Source: Succinivibrionaceae bacterium
Lineage (GTDB): Bacteria; Pseudomonadota; Gammaproteobacteria; Enterobacterales; Succinivibrionaceae
Direction: 5' to 3'
Assembly: GCA_019420905.1 (NCBI GenBank)
Contig: JAHZGH010000010.1
Coordinates: forward strand, 2,332 to 66,331
DNA: 64,000 nt
A program made the translations under genes and the position numbers. The notes beneath the pieces are model-generated. The model did not search any database and had not been told where the DNA came from. It was given only the letters and a program-made list of their open reading frames with translations. Numbering within the stretch: the stretch's first letter is position 1; each line of letters begins with the position of its first letter. Shown here one piece after another: positions 1 to 5,712 of this stretch.

Positions 1-1199
1 TGATTTAACCTATAAGTATTTGAAGGCTGCTTGACGTCTTGTTTCTGATCACAATTATTAATATTATTCTTATGGCAATTAGATAAAACATCATCTAAAG
101 CCTTCTGTAAATCAGCAGAAAATTTCTGAGGATTATTATTTTGATGTCTTATATAGGATTTTTCTGTTTTATCTAAGCATTGAGATAATACTACAGCTAA
201 AGACGGGAGCCTGTCATTAAAATAGACTCTTAATGGTTCCTGACCATCATTTTCAATAAATATTACTTCACTGCCGATATTATCTAAAGATAAGGACTTT
301 GGTAAAGAGCTTTGTATGTTTGCACTTATTATAAAATTAGTTTGAGATAAACGTTGCTGCAACTGAGCAAATGAAAGTGACTCAACATCTTCCTGCATCG
401 AAGAAGCAATGTTTGCACTTGTTGAAAAATTTTCTTTTACCTCAGCCTTAAAGTTAGCCTTAGTGGTAATTTCGCGATTCTCAGCTGGACTATCATCATT
501 TACAGATGCTTTTATGGCTGATGTTAAATTTGAAAGTTCAATGGCTGACAAGGTATTATGCGGAACATCTGGCTCCCTAGCTTGCTTACCATCTTGATGC
601 ATCATCTCTGAAGCAGCTTTAATAAAATTATCTAAATCAGATAAGTTATCATTATCCTTCTCTTTCTTAGATCTAATTAAAGCCTTTATAGCATCATGCA
701 GATGCATAATATATGACTTAACCTCATAAAGCTCATTAAGCATATTAGGACCTAAGTATATAGGCTTATTTGACATAATTTGCTTAAAAGCTTCTGTAGT
801 TTCTAATTTTAATGACGACTTAACGCTACTGATAGAATTTAAAGGCTTAGGATTTAAAATCTGCTCTAATTGTAATGCATACTTTGCATTTTGCCCGTTA
901 TGAATATATTTATCATCTTGAGAAACTATATTTTTCAGCGAATCACTAAATACATCTAAAGCAGACATCTCCTGAACTCGCCACTGACTTGCTGGAATAG
1001 CTTTAACCTTAGGCTTATCTTCAGCAGAAACTTCTTTAGATTTTACGATAGTACTGACGCTTTCAGGTTCAATATCTATAATATCAGATGCTAATTTAAA
1101 AGATAAATTTTCATTTAGCTTTATTGACAGATGAGCTCTTAATGCACTACGTTCGCAGTATAAATTTAAAGAATACTCGCTCTCACCTAACCAAACTTT
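1..1199 (-). CDS. dnaX: DNA polymerase III tau-specific C-terminal region (domains IV-V). It is reached only in the -1 frame relative to the upstream dnaX ORF and is partial, running off the window start.
   Basis: My translation of the minus strand after the A-run (VWLGESEYSLNLYCERSALRAHLSIKL...) stays open for about 398 codons to position 1. There is no in-frame start codon near the junction. The distal part resembles tau domain V. Confidence 0.7.
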
Positions 1200-2308
1200 T
1201 TTTTTTGAGGTGTAAAAGCTAATAAGCGTAATACCATCATTTCAAAAACGCTGGCACTGTCAAAGGCGACTGTATTCTCTTCTACTGCCTGTAAAGAAAT
1301 TTGATAATAAAGCTGTAAGCTCTCCGGAGCAAACACATGAGCATATTGCTCTAAAATCTCTAATGGAAATGAAAAAATCGATAACTTTCCCTGATTTACT
1401 AATTGATAAAGAGCTAAATCATGAAAACAGGAAACAATTTCATCTAATAAATTTTTATAATTAGGGCAACTCTTGCGGACATTATCCAAGAAAACGGCCA
1501 GATCAGCATCCGATCCTGGCTTTAAAATCTCCAAAAGATTAACTATAAGCTCATCACCTGCAGTGCCGAGCATATCAATAACACAATCACGCAATAAAGA
1601 GCCTGATCCTAAAGCTATAGCCTGATCGCATAATGATAAAGCATCGCGCATACTGCCTTTGGCAGATCTTGCAATCAAAGTTGCTGCATCATCTTCACAA
1701 GGAATACCTTCTTGCCCGCAAATCTTTTTTATCTGATCTTTGATCTCATCTATAGATAAAGCTTTTAGCTGAAACTGTAAACAGCGCGATAAAACTGTAA
1801 CAGGGATCTTATGAGGGTCTGTAGTAGCTAAAATAAATTTTACATATGACGGAGGCTCTTCTAATGTCTTCAACAAAGCATTAAAGCTGCTTGTTGAAAG
1901 CATATGAACTTCATCAATAATATAAATTTTATAACGGCCTGCAATCGGAGGATATTGAGTATTTTCAAGTAATTGACGAGTGTCTTCAACCTTAGTTTGT
2001 GAAGCAGCATCAATTTCAATTACATCAGGAAAAGATCCTGTAATAATAGCTTTGCAATTATCACAGAGATTTCCTTCATCATGAGGATGAGAGCTGATTC
2101 CATCCTTGCATTCCAGACATTTGGCAATAATACGAGCAATAGTAGTCTTACCAATACCACGGGTACCAGTTAATAAATAAGCATGATGAATGCGCTCTGA
2201 ATCAATAGTATTACGCAACGCAGCAATTACATGCTTCTGTCCGACAACCTCATCAAATGTCTGAGGTCGATATTTTCTAGCTAATGCCTGATACTCTGTG
2301 ATCGCCAT
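1187..2308 (-). CDS. dnaX: DNA polymerase III subunit gamma/tau, N-terminal domains I-III. The 0-frame product is 373 aa and gamma-like.
   Basis: Clamp-loader AAA+ motifs are present: Walker A GTRGIGKTT, Zn module C-x-C...CDNC, Walker B IDEVHML and the SRC motif (LSRC). The ORF ends QKKKFG* immediately after a poly-A tract. The apt-dnaX synteny matches E. coli. Confidence 0.95.
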   Translation of the reverse strand: MAITEYQALARKYRPQTFDEVVGQKHVIAALRNTIDSERIHHAYLLTGTRGIGKTTIARIIAKCLECKDGISSHPHDEGNLCDNCKAIITGSFPDVIEIDAASQTKVEDTRQLLENTQYPPIAGRYKIYIIDEVHMLSTSSFNALLKTLEEPPSYVKFILATTDPHKIPVTVLSRCLQFQLKALSIDEIKDQIKKICGQEGIPCEDDAATLIARSAKGSMRDALSLCDQAIALGSGSLLRDCVIDMLGTAGDELIVNLLEILKPGSDADLAVFLDNVRKSCPNYKNLLDEIVSCFHDLALYQLVNQGKLSIFSFPLEILEQYAHVFAPESLQLYYQISLQAVEENTVAFDSASVFEMMVLRLLAFTPQKKKFG

Positions 2309-2313
2309 AAAAA

Positions 2314-2898
2314 CTAATGTCCTGGTAGCTTAAATAGAGAGAAAGGTTTAATTCCAAATTTTTGCTCAATACGCTTAGCTCCGCCTAAATCCATAAGCTC
2401 AATAATAAAGGCAATATCAATAATCTTTGCACCTAAGCGTCCGACTAAGCTAGCCATAGCTTCAATAGTACCGCCTGTGGCTAAAAGATCGTCTACTAAT
2501 AAAACCTTCTCCCCTTTATTAAGTGAATCCTCATGAAGCTGCAATTTATTAGTCCCATATTCAAGCTCATAAACTTCTTCAATAGTCTGTCTTGGCAATT
2601 TTCCTGGCTTCCTTACCATAACAAATCCAGCATTTAATTTATATGCCAAGGCTGCACCAAATACAAAGCCGCGAGCTTCAGCGGCAACTACCTTGTCAAT
2701 CATATCATCCTTATAAATCTCATAAAGAAGATCTATAGTTGTAGCGAAAGCCTGTCCATTTTCACATAACGATGTAATATCGCGGAACATAATGCCAGGC
2801 TTTGGATAATCAGGAATACTTTTAATTGTGGACTTTAAAAATTCAATTTTTTCAGAATAATTTGGAATTTTATTTATGTCTAACATGAGAAAAGCCAC
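2314..2898 (-). CDS. apt: adenine phosphoribosyltransferase
   Basis: PRTase motif [13 protein letters not shown]. The length (194 aa) and the position upstream of dnaX are typical of Apt. Confidence 0.95.
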
Positions 2899-4935: not shown

Positions 4936-5712
4936 ATGTTTAGAAATGCTATTAAAGCTTGTTTCATGTTTGCAGCTTTAGTATTTTCTGCCCAAGTCTT
5001 TGCTGATACTGGATTCAAAGTTCCCGTACACTACAATGTTGAACTTGTAGATGGTATTTCAAACCCAAGCAATTACAGCCGTTTTAGCCGCACAATCGAA
5101 CTAGAGCCTGGCAGGCATCAAATTGTTTTATCTTTCAAAGATACCTTCGGCGGAGCTTCTGATGGACAGCTTGTAGAAGCCAGTAATCCTATTGTTATTG
5201 ACATTATGGATCTTAAAAAAAATCAGACTCTCTCTTTCTACTATAGTATTCCAACTACTGTTGACCAAGCCCAGCGTTATAGCCGTTCACAAAAAATTAC
5301 TTTAATTGATTATGATTCAGAAAAAGCTATTCCAAAAGATGAAGCTTCTTACTTTATTTTAGCCTCTGAAACAGGCTTTGTTATGATGCGTGATTATCGT
5401 ACTGAGCTTTTAACCTTAAACCGTTTATATGCTCCTACATATGTCGCCGGCAATCAGCGTACTATGGGTATGACTGACTATGGTTCGCCGATTATTGAGG
5501 CTACAGCAGCCTCTGATTTAGTTAGCGGAGCATTTTCAAACCAGACTATGAGTGCCCCATCTTTAAGTGCCGCTCAAAGCTCTAATATGTCTACCTCCTC
5601 AAAGAGTGGCAAAAAGAATGGCTCAGTCTCTTTAAATCAGCTAATCAAGCTTTACAATCAAGCCGATGATGCAACTAAATTACAATTTGTAAAATACGTA
5701 ATGTCTCACTAA
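4936..5712 (+). CDS. DUF2057/YccT-family (UPF0319) secreted protein
   Basis: Signal peptide MFRNAIKACFMFAALVFSAQVFA. It resembles E. coli YccT over its length, including the C-terminal LIKLYNQADDATKLQFVKYV motif. The ATG at 4936 has a GGAG 9 nt upstream, so I prefer it to the track start at 4921. Confidence 0.6.
   Translation: MFRNAIKACFMFAALVFSAQVFADTGFKVPVHYNVELVDGISNPSNYSRFSRTIELEPGRHQIVLSFKDTFGGASDGQLVEASNPIVIDIMDLKKNQTLSFYYSIPTTVDQAQRYSRSQKITLIDYDSEKAIPKDEASYFILASETGFVMMRDYRTELLTLNRLYAPTYVAGNQRTMGMTDYGSPIIEATAASDLVSGAFSNQTMSAPSLSAAQSSNMSTSSKSGKKNGSVSLNQLIKLYNQADDATKLQFVKYVMSH

Follow-up and report, generated by a model that had tools for sequence, protein, structure and literature searches.

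A dnaX gene split at a conserved poly-A tract in Succinivibrionaceae, with a gamma-like product in the templated frame and tau predicted to need a one-base frame change

The tau subunit of DNA polymerase III couples the clamp loader to the DnaB helicase and to the polymerase cores, and its gene, dnaX, has an unusual layout in the 64,000-nucleotide (nt) stretch of Succinivibrionaceae DNA, from a Succinatimonas-like gut bacterium, analysed here (GenBank assembly GCA_019420905.1, contig JAHZGH010000010.1, positions 2,332 to 66,331; hereafter, the window). The gene lies on the minus strand and is broken at a run of ten A residues, A10 (Table 1). Its first open reading frame (ORF), which we call the 0 frame, ends CCT CAA AAA AAA AAG TTT GGT TAG, so that the protein closes with ...AFTPQKKKFG* and the TAG (1189..1187) falls two codons past A10. 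The 373-amino-acid (aa) product carries the Pfam domains DNA_pol3_delta2, DNAX_ATPase_lid and DNA_pol3_gamma3 and, in a PDB search, aligns with residues 2-362 of Escherichia coli DnaX (E=1.6e-106); it is therefore exactly a protein of domains I-III. The +1 frame reads S L V R after the run and then meets a TGA (1185..1183). The -1 frame reads ...SKKKVWLGESEY... past the TGA at 1244..1242 and remains free of stops for 398 codons, down to window position 3. Because that TGA closes the frame upstream, the -1 frame is not an independent gene starting further 5'.

Much of this had been read from the letters alone in a first-pass annotation, and most of that reading stands: the split at a poly-A tract carrying A AAA AAG in the E. 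coli phase, the gamma-like product of domains I-III, the position of the break at the domain III boundary (the alignment ends at E. coli residue 362), the +1 stop after four codons and the open -1 frame of about 398 codons with a TGA upstream. Its hand count of nine bases in the T-run was wrong. The run is exactly ten, as the ORF translation QKKKFG* listed beside that count had required.

Table 1. Features of the dnaX locus in the window (coordinates on the forward strand)
Feature	Coordinates	Strand	Description
apt	2314..2898	-	Directly 5' of dnaX in gene order
dnaX 0-frame ORF	1187..2308	-	373 aa, 41.4 kDa, gamma-like; from the ORF list, Pfam and the E. coli DnaX alignment
A10 homopolymer (T10 on the + strand)	1197..1206	-	Putative recoding or slippage site; kept as A9, A10, A11 or A13 in relatives
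A AAA AAG heptamer in the 0-frame phase	1196..1202	-	Possible -1 ribosomal shift site
TAGGTGA, overlapping stops	1183..1189	-	TAG stops the 0 frame, TGA the +1 frame; the tau frame reads L-G-E
tau-specific coding region, -1 frame (VWLGESEY...)	3..1196	-	398 codons, cut by the window edge
TGA in the -1 frame	1242..1244	-	12 codons 5' of the Lys codons

The first-pass annotation had proposed comparing dnaX in relatives, and that comparison carries the main result: the same break is shared by 28 of the 29 related loci read at the DNA level. This count includes the locus L102, draws on assemblies from NCBI, ENA, Logan and JGI that are independent of one another and represent at least 11 lineages, and covers loci with DnaX proteins named Succinatimonas, Succinivibrio, Anaerobiospirillum and Ruminobacter. 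In all 28 the domain I-III ORF stops one to nine codons past a pure A-run with tau in the -1 frame, which is also the long open frame of every split locus read. The proteins agree, in that 82 of the 86 Succinivibrionaceae DnaX clusters stop no more than 13 residues from the Lys run that follows ...LRLLAF(T)P, 44 family clusters terminate exactly as KKK-X-G-stop, and Pfam tau_5 is found in none of the 86 (55-94% identity). When the 373-aa ORF was used as the query, all matches at 55-94% identity (the named ones being Succinatimonas, Succinivibrio, Anaerobiospirillum, Ruminobacter or Succinivibrionaceae) were 364-432 aa long and lacked tau_5; DnaX proteins of 520-650 aa with tau_5 appeared only at about 55% identity and below, the named ones among them being Pseudomonadales, Cellvibrionales or Gammaproteobacteria. 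The 398-aa product of the -1 frame retrieved five protein clusters, all labelled 'hypothetical protein' or unnamed and one of them from a metagenome-assembled genome (MAG) of Succinatimonas sp. All contigs of these five clusters that reach the upstream gene run from apt to a dnaX ORF of exactly 373 aa and then to a separate ORF, with the junction [C/G]-A10-G-NNT-GGN-TAG. A lineage whose C-terminal part is just 33% identical to that of the window reads CCC GAA AAA AAA AAG CGT GGC TAG at this point, and a pattern scan of JGI and ENA metagenomes gave five more loci, all A10, one of which is the same contig as L008. As a control we took distant dnaX loci of other phyla from a separate Walker-B scan of genome contigs (L012-L091); a short 0-frame ORF is present in two of 76 such unrelated loci, among the matches listed.

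What varies from lineage to lineage is the length of the run, its codon phase and the base after it. Succinivibrio (L092) has GAA AAA AAA AAG ATT GGA TAG, again an A10, and Anaerobiospirillum (L096/L097) has an A13 followed by G ATT GGA TAG. The Ruminobacter loci (L094/L095) read TTA AAA AAA AAA CGT TAG, an A10 in the other codon phase and followed by C; L102 reads GAA AAA AAA AAC TTT GGA TAG, likewise A10 then C; L100/L101 have A11 and L098/L099 A9, each before a C. The base after the run is G in Succinatimonas, Succinivibrio and Anaerobiospirillum, and C in L102, L098, L100 and Ruminobacter. The exception among the 29 loci, L103, comes from a Logan assembly and belongs to the L004 species; here an A11 gives one continuous ORF of 1033 aa (...AFTPEKKKAWLGED...); the in-frame run lies at 2600-2615 and the fused protein reads ...EKKKAWLGED... 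there. In the L004 species a fused protein occurs in three contigs versus approximately 45-58 that are split, and a fused variant, P0168 (three contigs), stands beside P0075 and P0167 (76 split contigs). These fused variants are either homopolymer errors or genuine minority alleles. An assembly error at the run of the window was a caveat of the first reading, and it can be put aside: A10 is the consensus state, L103 holds the sole in-frame A11 of the set, and because the break recurs in independent assemblies and species it is not an artefact of assembly. Judged by its sequence and distribution, the recoding site is real, conserved across the family and almost certainly functional.

The -1 frame past the run behaves as coding sequence from its very first codon. 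Translations in this frame align from the first post-run residue, as [V/A/D/L]-W-[L/I]-G-[E/D]..., and differences among the Succinatimonas-group loci usually peak at third codon positions of the tau frame. We counted codon differences over the first 30 post-run codons, pairwise among five loci of that group. The tau frame shows 74 synonymous and 104 non-synonymous differences, the 0 frame continued past its stop shows 30 and 149, and the +1 frame 18 and 161. This pattern places the onset of coding selection in the -1 frame at the codon that directly follows the run. Across the loci compared, the first 70 codons or more hold no conserved in-frame ATG, GTG or TTG. The first such codon is number 77 in the window, 35 in L002, 31 in L001 and 71 in L004, and the -1 frame of L010 has none within 120 codons. 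Since start codons are not conserved, independent initiation of this frame is unlikely, in line with the first-pass view that it is not a gene of its own. The lack of a conserved start and the selection on the post-run codons together suggest that a full-length tau fusion would be produced.

Because the window cuts the tau-specific region short, its end has to be read from relatives. The translation of L011 matches that of the window at 396 of 398 residues and adds 231 codons, which brings the tau-specific part to 629 aa and the predicted fusion to 1000 aa (112.3 kDa). Those 629 residues comprise a lineage-specific linker of approximately 460 aa and a domain V, the part that binds Pol III alpha. 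A profile built from nine lineages over the final 165 residues matches the whole of E. coli tau domain V (5fku_E, E=3e-7), with further matches to residues 518-637 of 8gj0_B and to 2aya, and Pfam tau_5 itself is detected at the C-terminus of the Anaerobiospirillum protein (E=9e-6) and in Ruminobacter (E=0.023). Neither tau_4 nor tau_5 of Pfam matches the 398-aa product of the window or the full 629-aa C-terminal part of Succinatimonas, so that domain V in the latter is visible only through the family profile or in the orthologues from Anaerobiospirillum and Ruminobacter. The first reading had placed a tau C-terminal part with domain V in the -1 frame. A true domain V does lie in this frame, approximately 230 codons beyond the segment then singled out and outside the window. 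That segment, EVIFIEND...KFSADLQKALDDVL, was rejected as domain V (hhalign probability 0.4%, with no tau among the PDB matches) and is instead part of the lineage-specific linker, which has conserved blocks.

Some further observations concern the linker and the surroundings of the gene. Linker blocks such as ENREITTKANFKAE and DKTEKSYIRHQNNNPQKFS (in the window at 3-1196 and in L011) are strongly conserved, have no Pfam or PDB match and are kept even in the lineage with 33% overall identity; they are candidates for a DnaB-binding (domain IV) function. Across the family, the C-terminal parts of tau range from 436 to more than 1175 aa. In L100 (4636-8173) and L101 no stop interrupts the tau frame over at least 1175 codons, up to the end of the locus; the gene call is 2406 aa, and repeats of Q, A and G are abundant. 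From these lengths a tau of approximately 2800 aa would be expected, which to our knowledge is far above the size of any known tau. In L098/L099 (4766-8299) the tau frame after the A9 runs for only 121 codons to a stop, and two more ORFs follow, one of 78 aa and one of at least 1138 aa, which reflects either more frame breaks in a repetitive linker or errors of the Logan assembly there. Gene order differs as well. The Ruminobacter loci L094/L095 (6767-9098) have the classic order dnaX-ybaB-recR-htpG. In the Succinatimonas group (L001-L011), dnaX is followed by a convergent gene for a periplasmic solute-binding protein and by a ParA-like gene, and it follows that ybaB-recR has been relocated elsewhere.

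The split layout may also extend to other lineages. Three unnamed DnaX proteins at 52-55% identity (P0095, P0104 and P0097) are approximately 372-387 aa long and end at a Lys run (...GEKKKN*, ...AEKKNF...) that sits 10-20 residues past the end of domain III. They may represent the same arrangement at a slightly shifted position. Within the control set, L074, from a Clostridia bacterium MAG, has a 0 frame that ends ...GEDVKKN* at GTA AAA AAA AAC TGA, an A9, at approximately 5040-5110, and its -1 frame is open for about 115 codons past the Lys run (RRKKKLKMQAYTGRL...). This may be another dnaX split at poly-A.

The site itself was examined for elements that stimulate ribosomal frameshifting. No Shine-Dalgarno (SD)-like motif (GGAG, GAGG, AGGA, GGGG, AGGG or GGTG) lies within 20 nt upstream of the run in any of the 11 lineages, which extends to the whole family the earlier remark that an E. 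coli-like SD is absent. Folding of the 70 nt downstream is no more stable than that of shuffled sequences (minimum free energy z-scores of -1.5 to +0.5), and RNAalifold finds no conserved pairs over the 11 lineages. The weak hairpin AGTAT-N11-ATACT, which the first-pass annotation had offered as a feature, is limited to the window and L011 and is not kept in L002, L010 or L004. An Rfam scan of the window at gathering thresholds returned no match, and so no known frameshift element or tRNA. By contrast with these missing elements, the A-run is always pure A and at least nine long, that is, three to six A residues beyond what the heptamer needs. It stays pure in Succinivibrio (A10) and Anaerobiospirillum (A13), where the flanks are apparently more G+C-rich. 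Stops also close both non-tau frames nearby, within 2-9 codons for the 0 frame and within 2-16 codons for the +1 frame across the 11 lineages, and in most of the A10G and A13G loci the single motif TAGGTGA supplies both. We have set these paired stops aside as proof of slippage and regard them as only suggestive, because TAGGTGA also encodes the conserved L-G-E and because both frames stop within four codons by chance at 6-13% of positions in dnaX.

The mere presence of an A10 is not an argument either. Composition alone predicts 0.6-2.7 runs of ten or more in this window of 36% GC (34-41%), so that a single run is not significant and we dropped its improbability as a line of evidence; the significance of the run comes from its conservation among relatives. 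The dnaX A10 is nevertheless the sole run of nine or more within a long ORF of the window. Four 9-nt A/T runs (36405, 51528, 51625 and 63843) all fall outside ORFs of at least 120 aa, and 10 of the 20 8-nt runs lie inside such ORFs, though these make up 87% of the window. The distribution is consistent with selection against slippage-prone runs in the coding sequence of this organism.

Taken together, the data suggest that gamma comes from the 0 frame and that tau is made only through a one-base frame change at A10, probably with slippage of RNA polymerase as the main route. Standard decoding would yield the 373-aa clamp-loader subunit, gamma-like and ending just past domain III. A one-base frame change at the run would join the two parts into a tau of approximately 1000 aa and 112 kDa, reading ...AFTPQKKKVWLGESEY... 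and containing the junction peptide VWLGESEYSLNLYCER. We suspect that RNA polymerase slips on the T10 template and adds a base, turning A10 into A11 and creating a mixed population of messages. Those with A11 (or A8 or A14) would be translated into tau. Those with A10, A9 or A12 would give gamma-like proteins ending ...QKKKFG or ...QKKSLVR, since both other frames stop within two to four codons. Some tau may in addition be made from unedited A10 messages by -1 ribosomal frameshifting on A AAA AAG. What leads us to favour slippage is the absence of a conserved SD or downstream RNA structure combined with the conservation of a long, pure A run. The varying codon phase and 3' base of the run, the scarcity of other long A/T runs in coding sequence of the window and the precedents of Thermus dnaX (A9) and of other two-ORF dnaX genes with A10 point the same way. 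Tracts of nine or more A residues are well established as sites of transcriptional slippage, and reverse transcriptases slip on them too (PMC5737552). The more general claim of the first reading, that tau relies on either -1 frameshifting or insertion of an A, gains support from the 28 loci, from the coding selection and from the presence of domain V.

Several points weigh against slippage as the main route, and most of them speak for the strongest competing explanation, namely that the message remains A10 and that ribosomes slip by -1 on A AAA AAG and continue GTT TGG, making frameshifting the chief source of tau. We consider this unlikely, although it deserves to be taken seriously. No -1 site in E. 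coli is known to shift more readily than A AAA AAG (PMC5009743), and the bare heptamer, lacking any stimulator, gives approximately 14-16% frameshifting in vitro. It is present in the correct phase in the window and in most lineages, and every lineage shares the -1 geometry. By a heuristic of Antonov et al., a single direction of shift favours ribosomal frameshifting (PMC3711429), and the review by Atkins et al. treats reversed dnaX genes as frameshifting candidates (PMC5009743). Some AT-rich bacteria may moreover suppress slippage (PMC1088944). The shared direction may, however, be simple inheritance from one ancestor. Frameshifting is harder to reconcile with the A-site codon, which is AAC or AAA in L102, L098, L100 and Ruminobacter; compared with A AAA AAG, both A AAA AAC and A AAA AAA are reported to shift far less readily in E. 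coli (PMC5009743). The run is also always three to six A residues longer than the heptamer needs, neither an SD-like stimulator nor a conserved 3' structure is found in any lineage examined, and an essential protein would hang on unstimulated shifting. One other point counts against the slippage reading. In-frame runs occur in a few assemblies (the A11 of L103 and the fused proteins P0153, P0162 and P0168), meaning that either DNA-level heterogeneity exists or homopolymer errors occur. The reading also supposes that the dnaX read at this locus is the only copy in the genome.

The remaining explanations fare much worse. If the switch were made in the DNA, replication slippage would toggle the run between A10, giving gamma only, and A11, and tau would come from the A11 subpopulation. 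Public A10 and A11 alleles of one species, together with the minority of fused contigs in the L004 species, are what such phase variation would leave behind, although those contigs may themselves be homopolymer errors. Tau is essential in E. coli, and cells with A10 would on that ground be unviable unless the gene is recoded; A10 is nonetheless the consensus in nearly every assembly, and we regard the toggle as very improbable. Equally doubtful is a truly split gene, in which the C-terminal part would be translated alone, by internal initiation or by reinitiation past the TAG, to supply a free tau C-terminus in trans. Gene callers do annotate a separate 'hypothetical protein' of 487-598 aa there, and the sequence after the stop, TAGGTGAG, is SD-like. 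The called starts vary by species, however, no in-frame ATG, GTG or TTG is conserved, and both the protein conservation and the synonymous excess begin at the first post-run codon; on general grounds, a detached tau C-terminus could not tether the polymerase to the loader. Finally, that the break is a sequencing or assembly error hiding an A11 (or A8) and one continuous tau ORF is scarcely credible, for although homopolymers are error-prone and L103 and three fused proteins stand in public assemblies, run lengths of 9, 10, 11 and 13 all keep the same frame geometry in independent samples, assemblers and species, and an identical systematic error in data sets where the run marks the end of 82 of 86 protein clusters is not to be believed.

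One extension of the slippage model, which we put forward as a rather speculative idea, is that the A-tract serves not as a fixed switch but as a tunable dosage device of independent origin, with gamma as the default product and the level of tau set by the efficiency of slippage. Run length (9, 10, 11 or 13) and the occasional A10/A11 polymorphism within a species would then tune the ratio of tau to gamma. ATP or other nucleoside triphosphate (NTP) pools, or growth rate, might possibly do the same and so affect replisome composition. Such a device would be separate in origin from the solutions found in E. coli and in Chlorobi and Bacteroidetes.

Whichever route is used, standard decoding does not suffice to derive the essential tau from the DNA anywhere in this family, whose members are common in the gut and rumen. 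The public annotations retrieved here name the N-terminal ORF of approximately 370 aa 'DNA polymerase III subunit gamma/tau' and the rest 'hypothetical protein', and tau is consequently absent from any proteome, pangenome, or completeness or essential-gene analysis built on them. The family also offers a natural series of A9, A10, A11 and A13 runs, followed by G or C and set in two codon phases, that could discriminate slippage from frameshifting by experiment and reveal the extent to which an essential gene can depend on slippage. Finally, the arrangement is a likely case of convergence within the Gammaproteobacteria, the class in which the opposite arrangement, that of E. coli, was defined.

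Comparison with known systems helps to place the locus. It shares with dnaX of E. coli and Salmonella the gene itself, A AAA AAG in the same phase and two products with domains I-III in common. In E. coli, however, unshifted decoding yields tau, and the shift yields gamma, ending one codon later, which is the reverse of the order here. The E. coli site also lies approximately 65 residues further downstream (codons 428-430, versus residues 369-371 here) and has an SD about 10 nt upstream and a stem-loop a few nt downstream, neither of which we find. Of the four features that define the E. coli cassette, three (stimulators, polarity and position) thus do not apply here, and the fourth, the heptamer, is present in the window without being universal in the family, several lineages having AAC or AAA as the last codon. 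Shigella flexneri mxiE resembles our case in needing one non-templated nucleotide at a homopolymer for its longer, functional product (PMC1088944). It differs in being an unrelated gene, for a regulator, with a U9 run, whereas dnaX encodes an essential replisome subunit and has an A10. Another parallel is the dnaX of Blochmannia vafer and B. floridanus, which has poly(A)-tract frameshifts with rescue by polymerase infidelity; for endosymbiont genes of this sort, approximately 30% of transcripts are reported to be corrected (PMC3017870). There too a gammaproteobacterial dnaX has its tau region out of frame at a homopolymer, with the full-length product presumed to arise by transcriptional slippage. 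Here, by contrast, the break sits exactly at the domain III boundary, is family-wide in free-living gut bacteria and has coding selection on both sides. Conservation across loci whose proteins bear the names of four genera also separates it from the degenerative endosymbiont type (Tamas 2008; Blochmannia), which is marked by lineage-specific erosion in a reduced genome.

The Thermus thermophilus dnaX gene is similar in its long pure A run (at least nine), in the near stops of both alternative frames and in needing no ribosomal stimulators. Its A9 run gives approximately 50% altered product (PMC1088944; Larsen et al. 2000, as summarised there and in PMC5009743). The polarity differs, since in Thermus the templated frame encodes tau and the slipped frame gamma, and here the templated frame gives gamma and the slipped one would be needed for tau. 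The nearest counterparts are the two-ORF, reversed dnaX genes that Antonov et al. (2013) described in Chlorobi, Bacteroidetes and Verrucomicrobia. They number 17 genes in 12 genera, nine of them with an A10 and eight of these nine followed by G and a close stop; the genera given for this pattern are Chlorobium, Prosthecochloris, Pelodictyon, Flavobacterium, Cytophaga, Capnocytophaga and Coraliomargarita. Transcriptional realignment was inferred for them, and the sites were at that time not annotated as programmed frameshifts in RefSeq (PMC3711429). Atkins et al. (2016) refer to these reversed genes as well (PMC5009743). In both sets the N-terminal ORF ends just past an A10 (A7-A9 also occur there), usually followed by G and a near 0-frame stop, with the tau C-terminus in the -1 frame. 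All the sequence hallmarks of this type are present here, namely a domain I-III ORF with a poly-A run, a -1 tau ORF with domain V, and conserved position and direction. No gammaproteobacterium is named among the published cases in the accessible portions of the text and supplement (PMC3711429), and a search of one literature collection found no paper linking dnaX with Succinivibrionaceae. Unlike those cases, the arrangement here is family-wide, with runs of 9-13 and tau C-termini whose length goes from 436 to more than 1175 aa, and from this spread, these run lengths and these sizes we infer an independent origin, most likely a convergent one within the Gammaproteobacteria. The type of arrangement has been known since 2013; what is new is a family-wide and apparently unannotated case among the Gammaproteobacteria.

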